Assembly: GCA_000004695.1 (NCBI GenBank)
Contig: CM000153.2
Span: forward strand, 3,648,001-3,712,000
DNA from: Dictyostelium discoideum
Taxonomy: Eukaryota
Direction of reading: 5' to 3'
Length of the DNA stretch: 64,000 nucleotides
Every line of letters begins with the position of its first letter. The first letter of the stretch is position 1. The notes below the pieces were generated by a model, which was given only the letters and a program-made list of their open reading frames with translations, searched no databases and was not told where the DNA came from. Both the position numbers and the translations under genes were made by a program. Shown here piece after piece: positions 1 to 64,000 of the stretch.

Positions 1-7523
<7,523 letters not shown>

Positions 7524-8047: not shown

Positions 8048-8148
8048 GTTTTTATCATTAAAAAAAAAACTATAAAAAGAAATTTTTTTTGTTTTCTTTT
8101 CATTAAATAAATTTCAAAAGTAAAAGGTATAGTATTAAAAATTAAAAA

Positions 8149-8978
8149 ATGTCTGTTGATGCAAATAAAGTAAAATTCTTCTTTGGTAAAAACTGCACTG
8201 GTGAATCATTTGAATACAACAAAGGTGAAACTGTAAGATTCAACAATGGTGATAAATGGAATGATAAATTCATGTCATGTTTGGTTGGTTCAAATGTTAG
8301 ATGTAACATTTGGGAGCATAATGAAATTGGTAAGTATTTATAAATATTTTCTATTTTTATAAATTATAAATAATATTAATAGGTTTAATTTATTATTATT
8401 ATTTTAATTTTAAAATATAGATACTCCAACTCCAGGAAAATTCCAAGAATTGGCTCAAGGCAGTACAAACAATGATTTAACCTCAATAAATGGTCTTTCA
8501 AAGTTCCAAGTCTTACCAGGAGCTTTTCAATGGGCAGTTGATGTTAAAATTGTCAACAAAGTTAATTCAACTGCTGGTTCATATGAAATGACCATTACTC
8601 CATACCAAGTTGATAAGGTTGCTTGCAAAGATGGTGATGACTTTGTTCAATTGCCAATTCCAAAACTTACTCCACCAGATTCTGAAATTGTTAGCCATTT
8701 AACAGTTCGTCAAACACATACACCATATGACTATGTAAGTTTATTATTATTATTATTATGATTATTATTAAATATATAATTAATTTCTCTTTTATTAATT
8801 TTTAATTTTTATCTTTCTATAAATAAAAAAGGTTGTAAATGGAAGTGTTTACTTTAAATACTCCCCAACAACTGGCCAAGTTACAGTTATTAAAAAAGAT
8901 GAGACATTCCCAAAGAATATGACTGTTACACAAGATGATAATACATCTTTCATCTTTAACTTAAACTCTGAAAAATAA
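8149..8978 (+). CDS. cadA: Calcium-dependent cell adhesion molecule DdCAD-1 (gp24), with 3 exons: 8149..8329, 8421..8734 and 8832..8978 (213 aa).
   Basis: Exon 1 encodes [60 protein letters not shown]. The donor is GTAAGT at 8330 and the acceptor ATAG at 8417-8420. Exon 2 ends ...HTPYDY with GTAAGT at 8735. Exon 3 reads [10 protein letters not shown]...NLNSEK*. The recalled DdCAD-1 sequence matches: a beta/gamma-crystallin-like N-terminal domain plus an Ig-like C-terminal domain, total 213 aa. Confidence 0.85.
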
Positions 8979-9063
8979 AACAATATGTTTTTTTTTCTCT
9001 TTAAGAAAACTTTAAATAATAAAATTATGAATTTCAGAAATTATTTAGGTCTTATTTTTATTT

Positions 9064-9297
9064 TATTTTTTTTTTTATTTGTTTCGATATTGGCTTAATT
9101 TGTAAATAACTTCATGTACACCAACGATATGACAAATTAAAATTGGGTCATTGCGATGGTGTTAAGAGATGTTTTATAGGCTCAGGGTTTCTAATTAGAA
9201 AATAAATCAGAAGTCAATAAAATTTCTTCAACTGGATCTTGGTGAAACGAAAGTGGTCTAATTTAATTATTTTTATTTATTTTTATGGAAGCGGGAA

Positions 9298-9331
<34 letters not shown>

Positions 9332-10440
9332 ACCTCAACCAATTAGGCAGTGTCTGAGTTTTATTTAATTTTATTTTGGTAGTATTTAAAAATTCTTAAT
9401 TATTTATGTAATTAGTATTGAATGAACAATAATGAACTAAATGTTCTGGTACATAAGTTCTCATTAATTGTGAATTCCAAGAGTGACTAAATTTTTCTAG
9501 CTTTTTCATTATTTTCCAAGTGTAGTCTAAATGAGGGTCTTTATTTCCAATCTTCTTAAATGATCTATTACTTTTAAAACGAAAGTATGGCGGGTCTTGA
9601 CGGCTTCTGTTGTGCCGTACCGGGGTGTCATGTCGGCCGTTTGTGCCGTCGGATGGTTTTGAAAACTACCTCCCCAGATTCGATTATAGTATTATAATCC
9701 CTCATTTCGGAGTTTTTAATTGCGGTACTTATTGGTCTGGTTATACATGTCTGAGGAGATTTTTGCTTTAACCCATCAATATGAGCAGTGTTTATTACTT
9801 CCTACTCTTGATCTAGGTCCTCTATGTTTATTACAAGCCAACAGGATATCGAACCGTTGTCCTAGGGTGTGCGTCGGTATTTACCTATCAGTGCCCTTCA
9901 AAGCGGGAAATTTTTTTTTTTTTTGAATTGGATAACGCAATTATTGGTTGCTTCTCCTTGAGATGCTAGATCTCATTTATTTTAGTATTTTTACAGGGTC
10001 TCTAAAAGAGGGGTTAGTTTACTTTTTTTTTTTTTTTTTTTTGTTTCTAATTTTGAATTGTATTATTACTTTTGATTAAAACATCTTTTTTGTCCAAACT
10101 TTTTTCAAAAACTTTTTTTATTTTATCGTCTGGCGACAGTTTGGCGGGTCTTGAAGTTGATGGTGTGACGAATACCCAACCTCCACTCATACTATCGGTG
10201 AAACCTTAAGCCACTTTCGTGACCGACACTCGCTCTCATCTCTCGCGCCACTCACTCGCCATTCGTCTTTATATATATTTTTACTTTTATCGACTTACTT
10301 TGTGTGAGCGCGATACCCCCTGTCTCCTTCCCGTTACTTGAAGTGTCTCGCCAGTGTACCACACGTTTACTATTGCAGTGACTGACTAACCAACGGCTTG
10401 CACTATCAGGGCCAATAAGCGGGAAATATGAAGCCAAAAA
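9064..10440 (-). mobile_element. Tandem array of three related non-coding, GC-richer repeat modules immediately upstream (19-26 bp) of the tRNA-Tyr gene. Likely remnants of tRNA-targeting retroelements (TRE5-type modules or DGLT-A solo LTRs); family not assignable.
   Basis: Units at about 9076-9300, 9590-9910 and 10143-10433. Units 2 and 3 both begin TGGCGGGTCTTGA and end CTATCAG(G/T)GCC..AAGCGGGAAAT, but their interiors differ. Read on the minus strand, each unit starts ATTTCCCGCTT and is followed at its low-coordinate end by an A-run (seen as plus-strand T-runs at 9301-9328, 9911-9924 and 9064-9075). This resembles successive poly(A)-terminated insertions with 5' ends facing the tRNA. Only short ORFs are present. 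The strand assignment is tentative. Confidence 0.4.
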
Positions 10441-10458
10441 ATAATTTAATTTCATCAA

Positions 10459-10541
10459 CCGGCTTTGGCGCAATGGTAGCGCGATTGACTGTAGTAATTA
10501 AAGTGATCAATCGGTTGCTAGTTCGAATCTGGCAAGCCGGA
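10459..10541 (+). tRNA. tRNA-Tyr (anticodon GTA) carrying an 11-nt intron after position 37
   Basis: Cloverleaf traced by hand. Acceptor CCGGCTT pairs with AAGCCGG. D-stem GCGC/GCGC with loop AATGGTA. Anticodon stem ATTGA/TCAAT. The anticodon loop CTGTAG is interrupted by TAATTAAAGTG. T-stem GCTAG/CTGGC with loop TTCGAAT. A T6 Pol III terminator lies at 10543-10548. Confidence 0.7.
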
Positions 10542-10567
10542 CTTTTTTAAAAAAATTTAAAGCCAAG

Positions 10568-10578
10568 GGTTCGATTCC
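10568..10578 (+). promoter_or_regulatory. External B-box (exB) about 27 bp downstream of tRNA-Tyr
   Basis: GGTTCGATTCC matches the B-box consensus GGTTCGANTCC. Extra downstream B boxes are a known feature of Dictyostelium tRNA genes and are implicated in TRE3 targeting. Confidence 0.45.
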
Positions 10579-10808
10579 TTGTAAAAAATGGTAGAATGAA
10601 AAAAGTCGAAACACACATGATCATGACTGTCACTTGCTGCTAAACCGTACCGCTATCAAGAGGATACAAGATACACGTGAAAAGTAATTCATCCTTTTCT
10701 ATCCTTAATCTCGGTCAATTTTAACCAATCTTTCGAAAAAAATCACCAATCCACCACGATCTACAGATCTAACTTACCAAATCGCCGATTCAAAGGAATC
10801 CCATCGAG

Positions 10809-11882
10809 ATGAATTCCTACGCAGACGCGGCTAAAATGGCCAACCCCTCCACCCATATGGACGAGGCATCGGAGAACTTCATTAAGGAATTCTCCACAAA
10901 AACAGCAGAGATAAAGGAAACTTACCCCAAACTATCAATAGGCCTCAAAGACATCTCCAAATACTGCGAGACCATATTGAACATGACTGCGCTCTCAACC
11001 TACGAGAAGAACAACGGATTCTACCCAATTACACTCGAATTCCCCAAAATGGATCTCAAGGGGTTAGAAGAAATGAGAAAAACACTCTCAAACTACGATA
11101 TCCCAATCGACAAGATATACATAGGCAAAGGAACTAGAAAAATGATCCACCTGATGATTAAAAACGAACAATCTCTCCTAAATATCATTAGAGATAGAAG
11201 CAAATTGGGAACCTTCATCACCTCCAGTAGAGACTTCCACGTCCTCACAGGAAGAGTAAGAATTCCCAGAGAAAAGGCAGGAATAGTGGACGCCCTCATC
11301 AAAACTGCCTTTGCAGAAGAAATACCCTATGCAATATACAATACTATATACTCCACCGACCACCTCATAGTATTCGGTCTAATAGAATGCAAAATAGGCG
11401 ATCAAATGAAATCTGGCCAACACATTACAGAAATCGCAAACTTTACCATCAGAACGGCCACCAAAACCTACTCCTCACAAAAGAAAAACAAGAAAGTAGA
11501 GACAAACAACACGGAGGAACCATTAGAAGATGAGATGACAGATCCTCCTAACACTCAAAACAGGATAGCAATCAAATCCTCTCAACCAAAACCACAACAA
11601 CAAACAAACAACTCAGCAAACAATCAGTCTGATAAACAATCAACACAAGAGAAAAAAGCTCAAGCAAAAAAGTCATCTCAACCTCTTCCCCCCAAAAACC
11701 CAGCAGAATTTCAATCTGTCAAACCCACCACAACCACTACCACAACATCCAACGCCATCCAAAAAGACAATGCCAACAAAACAAGCACTAACATCCATTC
11801 ATCCTCGGAAAACAGAGAGAAGACACTAAACATCCCTCCAACTATACACCGAATTTCAAAAACAAAACGACTACAACAATAA
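10809..11882 (+). CDS. TRE3 ORF1 protein (357 aa), basic with a Thr/Gln-rich C-terminus
   Basis: First long ORF of the element. Codon usage is GC-richer than host genes. It lies upstream of the RT-encoding ORF2. Confidence 0.65.
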   Translation: MNSYADAAKMANPSTHMDEASENFIKEFSTKTAEIKETYPKLSIGLKDISKYCETILNMTALSTYEKNNGFYPITLEFPKMDLKGLEEMRKTLSNYDIPIDKIYIGKGTRKMIHLMIKNEQSLLNIIRDRSKLGTFITSSRDFHVLTGRVRIPREKAGIVDALIKTAFAEEIPYAIYNTIYSTDHLIVFGLIECKIGDQMKSGQHITEIANFTIRTATKTYSSQKKNKKVETNNTEEPLEDEMTDPPNTQNRIAIKSSQPKPQQQTNNSANNQSDKQSTQEKKAQAKKSSQPLPPKNPAEFQSVKPTTTTTTTSNAIQKDNANKTSTNIHSSSENREKTLNIPPTIHRISKTKRLQQ

Positions 11883-11997
11883 GGCTAACATCAAAAATCT
11901 AATCTCCCTACTAGAGACAGAATTTAAAGACCAAGCCTTCGCAACCCTTTCAGCAATAAATGAATCTAAAAAAAGAGAAGAACAACTTAAACAAGAA

Positions 11998-14987
11998 TTG
12001 AACAACTATTGCGAAGAAACCTCACTCAAGTACATCTCCGCGAGAATCAAGAAAAGACACAATGATTTCACCATCAACGCAGTAAAAGATGCACAAGGTA
12101 GAACAATTAACAAACAGGAATTGATCGAAGAAGAATACGTAAAATATTACTCAAATCTTTATGACTACAAAGAAGATGACCCACTATCTCATTACGAAAT
12201 GTTGGAAAATTGGACAGTGACCAGGGACTCGACATGGGACAACCTTGAAAATGAATTCACCTCACAAGAAATCCTAGAAGTAATAAAACAACTGAACCCA
12301 CACAAATCTCCAGGTCCAGATGGAATTCCAAACTTATTCTACATAACACACAAAGAAAAACTAGCTCCAATACTGGCCTCAGCATTCAACGACACTCTAA
12401 GAAATCCTCATCTAATTAGCAAAAATTACAAAGAAGGCCTCATTATCACGATACCTAAAAAGGGAGACCCCGAACTAATCAAAAACAGAAGACCAATTAC
12501 ACTGGCTAACTGTATATATAAAATCCACTCAAAGCTAATAAACAATAGAATAATCCCAATACTAACGAAAGTGATCAACAACAATCAAAAAGGTTTCGTA
12601 CCAGGCAGATTCATTATAGATAATATCATATCAATGAACGAATTAATCAACTATTGTAATGATAAAAGAATTAACGGAATAATTACACTATATATTTCGA
12701 AAAAGCTTNNNNNNNNNNNNNNNNNNNNNNNNNNNNNNNNNNNNNNNNNNNNNNNNNNNNNNNNNNNNNNNNNNNNNNNNNNNNNNNNNNNNNNNNNNNN
12801 NNNNNNNNCTCATCTAATTAGCAAAAATACAAAGAAGGCCTCATTATCACGATACCTAAAAAGGGAGACCCCGAACTAATCAAAAACAGAAGACCAATTA
12901 CACTGGCTAACTGTATATATAAAATCCACTCAAAGCTAATAAACAATAGAATAATCCCAATACTAACGAAAGTGATCAACAACAATCAAAAAGGTTTCGT
13001 ACCAGGCAGATTCATTATAGATAATATCATATCAATGAACGAATTAATCAACTATTGTAATGATAAAAGAATTAACGGAATAATTACACTATATGATTTC
13101 GAAAAAGCTTTTGACTCGATCTCACACGGTTCAATACTTAGATCACTACAACACATCAACATTCCAACCAATATAATCAACCTGATAATGAATCTACTCA
13201 CCAAATCTGAAGCAAGAATTGAAATTAATGGTAGAACTACTATACCCTTTGAGATCAAAAGAGGAGTTAAACAAGGAGATCCACTATCACCCACACTGTT
13301 CGTCCTTGTAATAGAGGCTTTAGCTAGAAAAATTTTACAAGATGATCGAATTACTGGCCTTCCTCTAAACAACAGCAACCACAGAGAGAAATTCCAAAGC
13401 TTTGCAGACGACTCGGCTTCAATGGTCCCAGACTCTCAACAACTTGAATTAGTACTACAACACTTCAATTCATTTTGCAAAGCCACTTCCTCAAAACTAA
13501 ACATCGACAAATCTTCATCAATTCTTATAGGCAACCCAGACAATACCAACCAAAGAATTCCAATATCTACAAATCCAGAAAGATACTTGGGATACTTCTT
13601 CACAGGTAAAGGGATAACAAGAAAAATGCCAGAAATATTAAACACAATAAGATCATCCTTAGTACTATGGAAAACCACTGACTCAACAATAAAAACCAAA
13701 ACCAACATCCTCAAAGCATTCGCACTCTCTAAATTAACCTACTATTCATATGTAGAGAACTTTAAGGAAGAGGAATTAAACCAAATCAATAAATTAGTCG
13801 AATGGTTTTTATCGGCACCAAACAACAAAAATGCTAGTGGATTTCAAGTTATTAATTTAATGAGAACCAAAAGAGCAAGATACCCACTAAAAGTAGGGGG
13901 CTGGAACATTTGGAATATAGAATTGAGACAACTGGCGCAGAAACTTTGGATCATAAACCAGTTCATACTAGCACTAGAAACCAAACAAACAAACTCATCT
14001 CATCACAAAAGCTGGGAATATCAGATCCAAAAAAACAAATTCACATCCAGATACCTAAAAGAAAACTTAGACGAATGGAACAAAATAAGAATAAAAAAAG
14101 CAATCTTCAACAATAATCTCACATCCATAAAAAACGAAAATGGACAACCACTTTCACTGGCAGAATGGTATACCACAATTCAAGACCAAAATCCAACCAT
14201 CCCTAAAACTGAATTCCAATCATCTCTAAACTTAAGAGGCTACAGCTATAATCAACTCTTCAACAACATACTGAAGATAAAAGACCCTAAAACAAGAGAC
14301 ACAATGTTTAGATTCCATGCCAGATGTCTTCCAATAAACTACCTTCACAACAAACAATGCCCACTCTGCAAAGAAGATATGAGCAAAGACCCATACGGTC
14401 ACCTGTTCTTCTCATGCAAGAAAACAAAACAATTCATAAAAATAAATAAACTCAAAAATTTCATCTATATTACCACAGGCAAAGGTAAAAACTGGCACCA
14501 TACAAGAATTAGGCAAAATAACAATTTCATTAATAGAATAACTCCAAAATTATCACCGACATCCAAAAAAGATCAAGAAGTGAATGCAGATTACGCCAAC
14601 CACAGATCCCACAAAGAATACTTTGAATGGAACTATAAAGCAATAGACTATGATCTAACCAGATCATTCGCATATAGAAACCTAATGGCCCTTATCCTCC
14701 ACAACATTTGGATTTGGATTTGCAATCAAATATACAGTGAAGATCCTTTAACAGATGAATCACTATCATACAGCTCCCTTCTAAAGAAATGGCACAAATT
14801 GGCCACTCTAGAATACATCAAAAAAGCAAAAGATCTGAAAAACTTATCAGCAAAAGACCATAATAACTTCAAAGATCCTAAGATCCTTCTCACTTCAACG
14901 ATCAAGCTAAGAAAAACAACAGCTAATTACTATTGTATTCCAGAATCATCTCTCCCAAATATTATATCTTTTGATCAATTCATATGA
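11998..14987 (+). CDS. TRE3 ORF2 polyprotein (endonuclease/reverse transcriptase/Cys-rich C-terminal domain), interrupted by the 100-N gap and a flanking duplication
   Basis: ORF track pieces 11998..12879 and 12972..14987 share one reading frame logic. RT motifs and a CCHC-like motif are near the C-terminus. Sequence 12407..12708 is repeated at 12809..13110 with 2 small indels, flanking the N-run. Confidence 0.65.
12407..13110. other. Scaffold gap (100 N, 12709..12808) flanked by an approximately 300-bp near-identical direct duplication, a probable assembly artefact
   Basis: catctaattagcaaaaattacaaagaaggcctc...aattacactatat occurs on both sides of the N-run. The copies differ by 1-nt indels (aaaattacaaag vs aaaatacaaag; ctatatatttcg vs ctatatgatttcg). 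Confidence 0.6.
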
Positions 14988-15112
14988 TTAAAATAACCCT
15001 TCAGCTTAAATGATAAGCCTTTAAATAAATATTAAATAAAACTCGTATTAACACAGATGGACATATATCAATCTTGTTAATCCAATATTAAAAAAAAAAA
15101 AAAAAAAAAAAA

Positions 15113-15552
15113 CTTGCTGCTCAGGTTTAAAGAGTGATTTTTTCTGGGTAGTCAATCTTGTTAATATTAAAAAAAAAAAAAAAAAAAAAAAAATTCTGGG
15201 TATCAGGTAATGCAAATCCATGTCCATCAGGATGGTCAGTGGAATACCCAGTCAGAACTGCATCAATCACAAATAATCGATTAACTTGGTACTGGTGTGC
15301 AGATATATTCGATGTTGGTGGCATGTTGAGCAAAATACATTCTCATCAGTTCTAAATTGTGGTTATCAAGCCTATATTATTGGTACAATCACACCTTCAC
15401 AACAACCAATAGATATTTGGTTAATTCATTTTGTTCAAATGATGGTTCTATGGTTAGATCAAATACTAAACCAATAACATCTGATGCTACTAAAAATTTA
15501 TGTGCAAAAGGGAAAATAACAATCACCAATTCAAATATTGATACCTCTTGAT
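15113..15552 (+). pseudogene. Decayed fragment of the Cys-rich N-terminal domain (exon 1) of the EGF-repeat gene at 23667..24240. It has frameshifts and no start or signal peptide.
   Basis: Nucleotide and protein similarity to 23700-24150 (minus) and 52150-52540. The shared motif is ...SGNANPCPSGWSVEYPVRTASITNNRLTWYWCADI.... The reading frame is broken into three overlapping short ORFs (15158..15355, 15286..15477, 15357..15551). Confidence 0.6.
15151..15193 (+). mobile_element. Extremely 5'-truncated TRE3 insertion consisting of the last 18 nt of the element 3' UTR plus about A25, flanked by a 9-bp TSD
   Basis: GTCAATCTTGTTAATATT + A25 matches the terminus of the large element (ATCAATCTTGTTAATCCAATATT + An at 15067-15111). 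It is flanked by TTCTGGGTA at 15142-15150 and 15194-15202. The paralogous uninterrupted sequence at 52190 reads TTCTGGGCATCAGG. Confidence 0.6.
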
Positions 15553-52039: not shown

Positions 52040-52690
52040 GTTCTGGATATACTTGTGCTTTTTGTGAAATTCTTTCACCTGGTCGTCATGCTAGTCATTT
52101 TGGTGTTTGTAGAAGAATTCAATGTTTTGTGGGTTTTGATGTTCAGTTCACCAAAATCAGGCTCTGGATCAGGTTTAAAGAGTGATTTTTTCTGGGCATC
52201 AGGTAATGCAAATCCATGTCCATCCGGATGGTCAGTGGAATACCCAGTTAGAACTGCATCAATTAAAAATAATCAATTAACTTGGTACTGGTGTGCAGAT
52301 ATATTGGATGTTGGTGGCTTGATGAGCAATATACATTTCTCATCAGTGCTAAATTGTGGTGGTTATCAAGCCTATATTATTGGTACAATCACCTTCTCAA
52401 CAACCAATAGATATTTGGTTAATTCATTTTGTTCAAATGAAGGTGATATGGTTGAATCAAATTCTAAACCAATAACATCTGATTCTACTAAATATCTATG
52501 TTCAAAAGGAAAAGGAACAATCAATCACAGATGTTAGGTACCTAGAAAATGGTTATACAGTAACAGCTCCTTCATGTACAGGTTTGTATTAGTGTAAGAT
52601 ACATTTCTCATCAGTTCTTAACCGTGGTGGTTACAGAGCCTATTCGAAGGTTTTAAAGATGATCTACTAAAATGAATATCAACAATCTAT
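52040..52690 (+). pseudogene. Second decayed copy of exon 1 (Cys-rich N-domain) of the EGF-repeat gene. It includes the relic of the exon-1 donor site and a partial tandem re-duplication.
   Basis: 52150-52540 is collinear with the intact exon (…SGNANPCPSGWSVEYPVRTASIKNNQLTWYWCADILDVGG…NCGGYQAYIIGTITFSTTNRYLV…). 52540-52585 retains …CTGgtttgtatta with a deletion. 52590-52680 repeats the …ISSVLNRGGYRAY… segment. Frameshift between 51985..52185 and 52007..52537 frames. No signal peptide and no downstream EGF exon. Confidence 0.55.
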
Positions 52691-62356: not shown

Positions 62357-62446
62357 GCCCGTGTCGTATAGTGGTTATTATATCTGTCTTGTACTTAGTA
62401 CCAAAGCGATAACAGAGGGTCCTCAGTTCGATTCTGAGCTCGGGCA
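62357..62446 (+). tRNA. Intron-containing tRNA gene. The hand fold gives anticodon TGT (Thr) with a 17-nt intron after position 37. An external B-box-like GGTTCGAAGTC lies at 62477-62487.
   Basis: Acceptor GCCCGTG/CTCGGGC (one U-U mismatch at 6:67). D-loop AGTGGTTA. Anticodon stem TCTGT/ACAGA. Loop CTTGTA[intron CTTAGTACCAAAGCGAT]A. T-stem CTCAG/CTGAG with loop TTCGATT. Isotype is less certain than for the first tRNA. Confidence 0.55.
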
Positions 62447-62565
62447 CTTTTCCTCGCAGACAGAATTTCGGTCACAGGTTCGAAGTCTGTCTTCAAATAG
62501 TAAAACTATTAATTATTGTATATTCCCTTTAAAGGAACAATGATTAATCAAAGTTTATCCTTTAA

Positions 62566-64000
62566 ACGAATTAATCAACTATTGTAATGATAAAAGAATT
62601 AACGGAATAATTACACTATATGATTTCGAAAAAGCTTTTGACTCGATCTCACACGGTTCAATACTTAGATCACTACAACACATCAACATTCCAACCAATA
62701 TAATCAACCTGATAATGAATCTACTCACCAAATCTGAAGCAAGAATTGAAATTAATGGTAGAACTACTATACCCTTTGAGATCAAAAGAGGAGTTAAACA
62801 AGGAGATCCACTATCACCCACACTGTTCGTCCTTGTAATAGAGGCTTTAGCTAGAAAAATTTTACAAGATGATCGAATTACTGGCCTTCCTCTAAACAAC
62901 AGCAACCACAGAGAGAAATTCCAAAGCTTTGCAGACGACTCGGCTTCAATGGTCCCAGACTCTCAACAACTTGAATTAGTACTACAACACTTCAATTCAT
63001 TTTGCAAAGCCACTTCCTCAAAACTTAACATCGACAAATCTTCATCAATTCTTATAGGCAACCCAGACAATACCAACCAAAGAATTCCAATATCTACAAA
63101 TCCAGAAAGATACTTGGGATACTTCTTCACAGGTAAAGGGATAACAAGAAAAATGCCAGAAATATTAAACACAATAAGATCATCCTTAGTACTATGGAAA
63201 ACCACTGACTCAACAATAAAAACCAAAACCAACATCCTCAAAGCATTCGCACTNNNNNNNNNNNNNNNNNNNNNNNNNNNNNNNNNNNNNNNNNNNNNNN
63301 NNNNNNNNNNNNNNNNNNNNNNNNNNNNNNNNNNNNNNNNNNNNNNNNNNNNNCAAAGAAGATATGAGCAAAGACCCATACTTCTCATGCAAGAAAACAA
63401 AACAATTCATAAAAATAAATAAACTCAAAAATTTCATCTATATTACCACAGGCAAAGGTAAAAACTGGCACCATACAAGAATTAGGCAAAATAACAATTT
63501 CATTAATAGAATAACTCCAAAATTATCACCGACAGCCAAAAAAGATCAAGAAGTGAATGCAGATTACGCCAACCACAGATTCCACAAAGAATACTTTGAA
63601 TGGAACTATAAAGCAATAGACTATGATCTAACCAGATCATTCGCATATAGAAACCTAATGGCCCTTATCCTCCACAACATTTGGATTTGGATTTGCAATC
63701 AAATATACAGTGAAGATCCTTTAACAAATGAATCACTACCATACAGCTCCCTTCTAAAGAAATGGCACAAATTGGCCACTCTAGAATACATCAAAAAAGC
63801 AAAAGATCTGAAAAACTTATCAGCAAAAGACCATAATAATTTCAAAGATCCTAAGATCCTTCTCACCTCAACGACCAAGCTAAGAAAAACAACAGCTAAT
63901 TACTATTGTATTCCAGAATCATCTCTCCCAAATATTATATCTTTTGATCAATTCATATGATTAAAATAACCCTTCAGCTTAAATGATAAGCCTATAAATA
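62566..64000 (+). mobile_element. 5'-truncated TRE3-type retrotransposon copy (the 3' part of ORF2 onward), inserted about 108 bp downstream of the second tRNA in the same orientation. It runs off the window end and contains a 100-N gap at 63254..63353.
   Basis: 62566-64000 is at least 97% identical to 13040-15030 of the first element. Homology starts abruptly at AATTAATCAACTATTG. The 100-N gap replaces about 650 bp. A 12-bp deletion (ggtcacctgttc) lies relative to copy 1 near 63380. The poly(A) end is not in the window. Confidence 0.8.
62567..63960 (+). CDS. TRE3 ORF2 3' portion (the RT C-terminal and Cys-rich domain), gapped and partial
   Basis: ORF-track pieces 62715..63422 and 63364..63960 are collinear with 13191..14987. 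Confidence 0.6.

Follow-up and report, generated by a model that had tools for sequence, protein, structure and literature searches.

We analysed a 64,000-nucleotide stretch of the Dictyostelium discoideum genome (GenBank assembly GCA_000004695.1, contig CM000153.2, positions 3,648,001 to 3,712,000 of the forward strand; hereafter the window), in which a tRNA-Tyr(GUA) gene in the cadA-FNIP intergenic region is flanked on both sides by sequence of retrotransposons without long terminal repeats (LTRs). The arrangement is very probably the product of known tRNA-gene-targeted retrotransposition on both sides of this one gene, with a TRE3 element downstream and two TRE5-type events upstream. Targeting of tRNA genes in Dictyostelium has been described since 1989: the retrotransposons avoid genes by docking on the RNA polymerase III (Pol III) machinery, and TRE5 elements generally lie ~45 bp upstream and TRE3 elements ~100 bp downstream of tRNA genes. 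A preliminary description of this DNA had called the tRNA gene a landing pad for retroelements, and the insertions found on either side, each with its target-site duplication (TSD), bear this out. The features, including open reading frames (ORFs), untranslated regions (UTRs), the reverse transcriptase (RT) domain and the external B (exB) box, are collected in Table 1. For comparison we used, from D. discoideum, another tRNA-Tyr locus in a gapless assembly (L001), this very locus in a gapless assembly (L005, 99.8% identical) and two wild strains (L006 and L007), together with two loci of D. cf. discoideum (L008 and L009).

Table 1. Features around the tRNA-Tyr gene, in window coordinates
Feature	Position	Strand	Evidence or remarks
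tRNA-Tyr(GUA) gene with intron	10459-10541	+	Rfam tRNA 57.8 bits; ARAGORN with introns; copy comparison
Anticodon	10491-10493		
Intron, 11 nt	10495-10505		TAATTAAAGTG
Internal B box	10520-10530		AGTTCGAATCT
Pol III terminator T6	10543-10548		after tRNA-Tyr
exB box GGTTCGATTCC	10568-10578	+	in T-arm-like hairpin CAAGG-GTTCGATT-CCTTG; read from sequence; strain conservation
Distal TRE5 TSD AAGCGGGAAAT	9289-9299	.	three exact copies
Element B, TRE5-type, internally deleted	9301-9900	-	head-to-head with tRNA; L008 identity, ORF2 tail, strain absence
B: part X	9900-9601	-	5' end of element
B: last 21 nt of part Y	9600-9580	-	
B: last ~60 codons of ORF2	9578-9396	-	
B: 3'UTR, TRE5-B-like	9395-9339	-	
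B: A38	9338-9301	-	3' end of element
Middle TRE5 TSD AAGCGGGAAAT	9901-9911	.	three exact copies
Element C, TRE5-type, head plus tail	9912-10416	-	head-to-head with tRNA; L008 identity, TRE5-A tail, strain absence
C: first ~17 nt of part X	10416-10400	-	5' end of element
C: part Y	10399-10134	-	
C: last ~90 nt of TRE5-A B-module	10133-10044	-	
C: A21	10043-10023	-	
C: C-module	10022-9925	-	
C: A13	9924-9912	-	3' end of element
tRNA-proximal TRE5 TSD AAGCGGGAAAT	10417-10427	.	31 nt left before tRNA-Tyr
Left TRE3 TSD ACTTGCTGCT	10632-10641	.	10-mer count; homologues with one copy
TRE3 non-LTR retrotransposon, most likely TRE3-A	10642-15111	+	tRNA orientation; ORFs, translation, RVT_1, copy identity
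TRE3: 5'UTR, 167 bp	10642-10808	+	
TRE3: ORF1	10809-11882	+	3' end removed by internal deletion
TRE3: ORF2 remainder	11884-14987	+	
TRE3: RT	~12451-13595	+	
Assembly artefact in TRE3	12709-13110		100 N (12709-12808) and redundant copy 12809-13110 of 12407-12708; self-alignment; L005
TRE3: Cys/His motif	14358-14417	+	
TRE3: 3'UTR	14988-15089	+	
TRE3: poly(A), A22-23	15090-15111	+	
Right TRE3 TSD ACTTGCTGCT	15112-15121	.	10-mer count; homologues with one copy
Second TRE3-A insertion, extreme 5' truncation	15142-15202	+	insert 15151-15193 = GTCAATCTTGTTAATATT + A25 (43 bp)
9-bp TSD TTCTGGGTA of this stub	15142-15150 and 15194-15202		

The gene at the centre of the locus is a eukaryotic tRNA-Tyr(GUA) gene with a cloverleaf, a GUA anticodon and an intron one base 3' of the anticodon. 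Its Rfam match carries a 14-nt insertion in the anticodon loop. ARAGORN names the gene Thr(tgt) by default and Asn(gtt) when introns are allowed, both of which need non-canonical intron positions, so the program in its bacterial mode should be used with caution on intron-containing tRNAs. With the intron placed at the canonical 37/38 position, a manual parse reads the loop as CUGUAG-TAATTAAAGTG-A and the anticodon as GTA, that is, Tyr. The four copies of this tRNA-Tyr compared (window, L001, L006 and L007) differ only within these 11 bases, as expected if they are an intron. The exB box, found where it had been expected, begins 26 nt past the end of the gene and 63 nt ahead of the TRE3 insertion point. 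Both GGTTCGATTCC and its hairpin context are kept in L006 and L007 despite flanks that are ~10% diverged, and the motif fits the description of the external B box present at most D. discoideum tRNA genes (PMC5911963).

Downstream lies a TRE3-type element, as had been proposed, with two ORFs, a poly(A) tail, no LTRs, a TSD and the distance and orientation of a TRE3. It starts 100 nt from the discriminator base (10541) of the tRNA gene, or 99 nt from the end that ARAGORN assigns (10542), within the 40-150 bp downstream of tRNA genes where TRE3 elements are placed in the same orientation (PMC5911963). The orientation is that of the tRNA in all copies examined, at offsets of +100 here, +118 at a second tRNA gene of the window, and +63 and ~+105 in L001, where two full-length relatives of 5247 bp, each with its own TSD, lie behind another tRNA-Tyr. 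Of the APE, RT and zinc-finger domains that follow one another in a TRE3 ORF2, the RT is well supported here (RVT_1, E=1e-33), and APE is absent from this copy owing to an internal deletion; the zf-RVT match is weak (E=0.028), with a visible CX2C...H...C motif. ORF2 is 100% identical to a D. discoideum protein cluster of 79 members (P0001), which identifies the species, and is 40-44% identical to the cluster of the GenBank 'pol' entry AAD43057, which has APE and RT domains, versus 32-37% to the ORF2s of elements located upstream of tRNAs; the proteins compared carry no TRE names in the databases used, and these values are identity percentages, not a tree. Deletion aside (see below), the copy is 99.6-99.8% identical to the full-length copy at L001 6051-11305. 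The subfamily is most likely TRE3-A, judged by the full-length size (5247 versus 5229 bp; published consensus lengths are 5229 for TRE3-A, 5279 for TRE3-B and 4734 for TRE3-C, PMC5006619), by the membership of the largest cluster and by the exclusion of the GenBank 'pol' cluster. The element shares with TRE3-A (Tdd-3) its two ORFs, poly(A), RT and Cys/His motif, its TSD, its position ~100 bp downstream of, and co-oriented with, a tRNA gene, the length of its full-length relative and its place in the most abundant TRE3-like ORF2 cluster; it differs in an internal deletion of 1175 bp, to which the endonuclease domain and the 3' end of ORF1 have been lost, and the subfamily name is assigned indirectly.

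At the second tRNA gene of the window (62357-62447), also intron-containing and called Thr-UGU by ARAGORN, an exB-like AGGTTCGAAGTCT is found at 62477-62489. A 5'-truncated TRE3-A begins at 62565, 118 bp downstream, and continues past the end of the window (64000).

The length of 4.5 kb initially given for the TRE3 copy is inflated by a gap of 100 N and an overlap of 303 bp. The sequences on both sides of the gap (12407-12708 and 12809-13110) are 99.3% identical to each other in a self-alignment, a duplicate of 302-303 bp, and the gapless assembly of this locus runs uninterrupted through the gap point, where its two alignments to the window overlap by 303 bp. Since the gap flanks are duplicated and L005 is continuous, the true length is 4069 bp rather than the 4470-bp span, a reminder that N-gaps within repeats can inflate element lengths. 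Both 100-N gaps of the window (12709-12808 and 63254-63353) fall inside TRE3-A copies; the artefact is shown for the first. In comparison with full-length copies, 1175 bp are missing at the junction 11839/11840, with a microhomology of 2 nt. In full-length relatives, the corresponding segment holds the end of ORF1 and endonuclease motifs (Exo_endo_phos, a weak match at E=8e-4, below the Pfam cut-off). Judged by its sequence, the copy is young, but would be unable to move on its own because the deletion has taken out the endonuclease domain together with the 3' end of ORF1.

The TRE3 copy is bounded by a perfect 10-bp TSD, as the preliminary description had it. ACTTGCTGCT occurs exactly twice in the 64 kb (chance expectation 0.01), and it is absent inside the full-length copies of the element. 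When position 10641 is joined to 15122, as had been suggested for reconstructing the empty site, the sequence is colinear with two paralogues (52169-52523 and 24106-23741, minus strand) and with the orthologous epidermal growth factor (EGF)-repeat gene that lies behind this tRNA-Tyr at L009 of D. cf. discoideum. A single equivalent of the 10-mer is present in each of them. Another TRE3-A insertion, with an extreme 5' truncation, follows the large copy at a distance of 30 bp, at a pre-insertion position ~129 bp past the tRNA-Tyr gene. Its segment 15152-15191 aligns to the 3' end of the large copy, the insert as a whole (15151-15193) amounts to ~19 nt of TRE3-A plus poly(A), and three homologous sequences have a single TTCTGGGYA at this site and no insert.

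The DNA into which both TRE3 insertions went (10585-10641 and 15122 to ~15560) is the remnant of an EGF-repeat gene without its 5' end. In D. cf. discoideum the gene is intact (L009 9175-12903, >1771 aa) and starts ~690 bp past the same tRNA-Tyr. L006 and L007 have further deletions in the region of the remnant, which differ from each other.

Upstream of the tRNA gene, three tandem modules with shared termini had been proposed. The motifs recur where they had been placed, GGCGGGTCTTGA twice and AAGCGGGAAAT three times; the inserted units are two, not three. The presumed first module has no left terminus, shares only the 11-mer with the others and is ordinary flank between cadA and the tRNA gene. 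The two units, B and C, are TRE5-type elements on the minus strand, head-to-head with the tRNA gene, with distal tails of A38 and A13, an 11-bp TSD in three copies, a 5' end 42 nt from the tRNA and sequence homology to TRE5 elements; they form neither LTRs nor a tandem array. The ORF2 tail of B is 60% and 56% identical to two TRE5-type ORF2 C-termini (P0028 and P0031, respectively). The tail of C is a TRE5-A 3' end, consisting of part of the B-module and the C-module, and matches the TRE5-A copies L002, L003 and L004. The distance of 19-26 bp given between the last module and the tRNA is too short: the last AAGCGGGAAAT ends 31 bp before the gene, and the retroelement itself has its 5' end at 10416, 42 bp away. 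TRE5 elements have been placed ~44-54 bp upstream of tRNA genes in opposite orientation (PMC5911963), with a genomic range of 34-95 bp (PMC5006619).

The supposed right terminus, AAGCGGGAAAT, is host sequence, a TSD made twice at the same staggered cut, and it is present in three copies because the site was hit twice, in the order TSD-B-TSD-C-TSD. This follows from the wild strains, where both B and C are missing: L006 reads ...TTTTATGGAAATGAGAGGCC... up to the tRNA, equal to window 9280-9299 joined to 10428-10458. At exactly this nucleotide position, L006 and L007 have different TRE5 fragments, stacked on a TSD. In L007, TTTATGGAAAT is found five times upstream of the tRNA-Tyr, the proximal copy at 12388-12398 and the tRNA at 12430, with the same spacing of 31 nt. 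The same position was thus hit independently in three lineages, which underlines the precision of targeting. For annotation, the lesson is that repeated termini beside a tRNA gene can be reused TSDs instead of element ends.

Reuse of a TSD by stacked TRE5 insertions was seen at every tRNA gene inspected, with GTTTAATATAAT three times in L001 (11950-12230), TTTATGGAAAT five times in L007 (11500-12400) and TAATTAGAAAG four times in L008 (2620-9790). Some of these stacked inserts consist of just 7-14 nt of C-module and poly(A). Moreover, a repeat of ~200 bp with a poly(A) end (…CACAATAATTACCACACACAAGAAAC…GCCCAGCCAATGTGGGT(A)n) adjoins TRE5 insertions upstream of two tRNA genes (L004 9795-9990 and L007 12200-12387, reverse strand).

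Elements B and C both begin with a GC-rich body; aligned to each other, the two bodies share only ~35 nt at one end and, at the opposite end, ~21-45 nt. Their origin is explained by a full-length TRE5-type element of D. cf. discoideum at L008, a locus found via P0028, the relative whose ORF2 C-terminus is closest to the tail of B. This element has ORFs of 610 aa (ORF1) and 1143 aa (ORF2), is flanked by a TSD and lies 49 bp upstream of a tRNA-Ala, head-to-head. Its 5'UTR consists of a part X (2637-2942) followed directly by a part Y (2936-3205). Window 9600-9872 is 91.7% identical to X (L008 2942-2668) and window 10134-10399 is ~90% identical to Y (L008 2936-3205); the two bodies are non-homologous because they represent different halves of one TRE5-family 5'UTR. 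The shared termini are accordingly the start of X and the end of Y that both units have; the latter reads TCAAGACCCGCCAWACTKTCG, and TGGCGGGTCTTGA is its reverse complement. Both B and C retain the 5' end exactly, as well as the final 21 nt of Y, and the supposed left terminus of the modules corresponds to the last 13 of these 21 conserved bases. The start codon of ORF1 sits within Y and is, in C, fused in frame to codons of the TRE5-A B-module. Read from the sequence, this fusion hints that TRE5 RNAs recombined or that the template was switched between them, in the way known from the non-autonomous TRE5-A.2.

Several searches for other sources of the bodies were negative. In an Rfam scan of 8500-11000 for structured RNAs the tRNA was the sole match, and the folding energies of both bodies, on both strands, were no better than those of shuffled sequences (z = -0.05 and -0.9). 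Compared with the A- and B-modules of TRE5-A or TRE5-B, including hyper-edited versions in a purine/pyrimidine alphabet, the bodies showed no significant similarity; X and Y are absent from L003 and L004. A metagenome scan for TCAAGACCCGCCAWACTKTCG gave 0 matches, a full-text literature search for the terminal motifs gave unrelated primer matches only, and an exact look-up of P0016 found no record.

These results bear on two other origins that can be imagined for the upstream region. The three modules could be solo LTRs, for instance of DGLT-A (H3R) or of another tRNA-targeting LTR element, bounded by TGGCGGGTCTTGA and AAGCGGGAAAT. The termini do recur at the places given, the bodies of 286 and 324 bp are close to the DGLT-A LTR of 265 bp, the last module at 31 bp falls within the DGLT-A window of 13-33 bp upstream of tRNA genes, and TGGCGACA, the 8 nt with which the published primer-binding site of DGLT-A begins, is found at 10131-10138. 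However, there are only two left termini, and the first module otherwise shares nothing; a non-LTR element with ORF1, ORF2 and poly(A) has a 5'UTR to which the bodies are 90-92% identical; each body runs into a TRE5 3' end and poly(A), with the whole unit inside an 11-bp repeat; a TG...CA pair and inverted termini are lacking, as is a TSD of 4-6 bp around the bodies; and the insertion-free strains have host flank at the position of the 11-mer. So while position and size are compatible with a DGLT-A solo LTR, the bodies run on into TRE5 tails with poly(A) and lack a separate TSD, and an LTR origin is highly improbable. DGLT-A solo LTRs and yeast Ty3 have in common with this locus the insertion close upstream of tRNA genes; they differ as LTR elements with an integrase and short TSDs, features of an LTR being absent from the upstream region here. 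Scenarios with a DGLT-A LTR and primer-binding site or with strong-stop cDNA, in which TGGCGGGTC resembles a primer-binding site and TGGCGACA is the start of that of DGLT-A, were dropped when L008 revealed a non-LTR 5'UTR. Even less credible is that the bodies are cDNAs of unrelated cellular small RNAs joined by template switching to 5'-truncated TRE5, in the manner of chimeric U6/L1-type retro-pseudogenes. The architecture would suit this, with a full-length foreign 5' part, a truncated 3' part of a long interspersed element, poly(A) and one TSD; both the 5' and the 3' ends of the bodies are defined and shared, and the 3' boundary ...CCCGCCA resembles a tRNA 3' end. Against it stand the lack of an Rfam match, folding like that of shuffles, and the occurrence of both bodies side by side in a full-length TRE5-type 5'UTR (L008), with the ORF1 start codon inside Y.

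A different question is when the interiors of the elements were lost. Elements B and C and the TRE3-A copy may have been inserted longer or at full length, with their interiors deleted later in place. Deletions are frequent in the AT-rich intergenic DNA of Dictyostelium, with L006 and L007 each having a different one downstream of this tRNA; the TRE3-A junction has a mere 2-nt microhomology, and a second copy with the same deletions was not seen in ~190 kb of other D. discoideum DNA. On the other hand, B and C would each need two internal deletions that leave the 5' terminus exact and also spare the 3' end and the final 21 nt of the UTR, the in-frame joining of the Y-ORF1 start to the TRE5-A B-module in C looks like a B-to-B recombinant of the TRE5-A.2 kind or a template switch, and deleted TRE5-A.2 copies mobilised in trans are known. 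We therefore consider deletion in place unlikely, although a real contender.

The element identities, boundaries, TSDs, orientations and distances, the absence from other strains and the reuse of the site are read directly from the sequences compared, and the history proposed from them, tRNA-targeted retrotransposition on both sides of the gene, would run as follows. The TRE3 would have used target-primed reverse transcription to enter at 99-100 bp downstream of the tRNA and 63 bp downstream of the exB box, with a complete 5' end, poly(A) and a 10-bp TSD. A second TRE3-A event 30 bp further on would have left ~19 nt and poly(A). Upstream, a first TRE5-type event would have given element B, and a second one, into the tRNA-proximal copy of the TSD, element C. 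This order would account for the pattern TSD-B-TSD-C-TSD, in which the insertion adjacent to the tRNA is the youngest, since C would have entered the proximal TSD copy after B. The internal deletions would predate insertion, with deleted or template-switched RNAs copied and mobilised in trans, as non-autonomous, deleted TRE5-A.2 copies are. Targeting would presumably proceed via the Pol III factors TFIIIC and TFIIIB at the B and exB boxes: TRE5-A requires an intact B box and has an ORF1 protein that contacts TFIIIB, and sites downstream of an internal or external B box are used by TRE3 (PMC5911963). Because the literature on TRE5-A and TRE3 ties targeting to B boxes and TFIIIB, the Pol III complex most likely positioned all four insertions. 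Variable 5' truncation, as in the 43-bp TRE3-A stub, poly(A), TSDs of 9-13 bp and target-primed reverse transcription are shared with 5'-truncated insertions of human L1, which differs in not being position-specific, the site here most likely being set by the Pol III transcription complex.

Some points weigh against this history or parts of it. L006 and L007 lack the TRE3 copy, but their deletions span the site, so they do not provide precise empty sites, and the empty-site evidence for TRE3 consists of paralogues and the sister species. The name TRE3-A derives indirectly from length, abundance and exclusion of the 'pol' cluster, and the APE match of the deleted segment is under the Pfam threshold. 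Upstream, 42 bp is at the short end relative to the 46-49 bp published for de novo insertions of TRE5-A. In addition, the full-length X+Y element is seen only in a sister-species assembly, not as a D. discoideum parent of B and C.

With respect to known families, B and C resemble TRE5-A (DRE) and TRE5-A.2 in lying head-to-head ~42 bp upstream of the tRNA, in being ORF-less derivatives that would need proteins in trans and, for C, in ending with part of the B-module, the C-module and oligo(A); the C-module is experimentally essential for TRE5-A retrotransposition (PMC3159450). They differ in that their 5' ends are not an AT-rich A-module but the GC-rich X+Y 5'UTR of another TRE5 lineage, and in that B has a TRE5-B-like end without a C-module. 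The X+Y family may be TRE5-C, compared here by description only, which is known as a partial consensus of 879 bp from 18 copies, none full-length, without ORFs and ending in a C-module (PMC5006619). The sum of X (~305), Y (~270), the B part (~90) and the C-module is roughly 879 bp, and both are ORF-less and found at the same place upstream of tRNAs. In contrast, the published C-module is 78% identical to that of TRE5-A, whereas that of element C is ~94% identical to the TRE5-A copy in L004.

The start of X carries motifs similar to an A box and a B box (L008 2637-2700, GATAGTGCAGTGGTA ... GGTTCGATACC; window 9855-9844, minus, GGTTCGATATCC, which has an additional base). A tRNA at the start of X is called by neither ARAGORN nor Rfam, and the L008 5'UTR had no credible match when scanned with Rfam, which gives the tRNA-like appearance of X no support; the motifs may be due to chance or represent a decayed tRNA-derived head. 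Given such motifs, X+Y elements might, to judge from sequence, themselves bind TFIIIC. A bolder and rather improbable proposal is that X+Y marks a TRE5 lineage surviving in AX4 only as short, ORF-less 'head plus tail' elements similar to short interspersed elements, each with an exact 5' terminus, the final 21 nt of the UTR and a partner's 3' end, and that the copy with a borrowed TRE5-A C-module would have been mobilised in trans by TRE5-A proteins. If true, and if X+Y is not simply the published TRE5-C, this would be an undescribed non-autonomous tRNA-targeting element.

Otherwise, the locus is known D. discoideum biology in the reference genome, without a new principle, and offers a tidy illustration of tRNA-targeted integration resolved to the nucleotide. 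The gene directly upstream of it, cadA (window ~8144-8976, three exons), encodes DdCAD-1, calcium-dependent cell adhesion molecule 1, of 213 aa, and places the window on the AX4 chromosome with DDB_G0285795 to DDB_G0285835.

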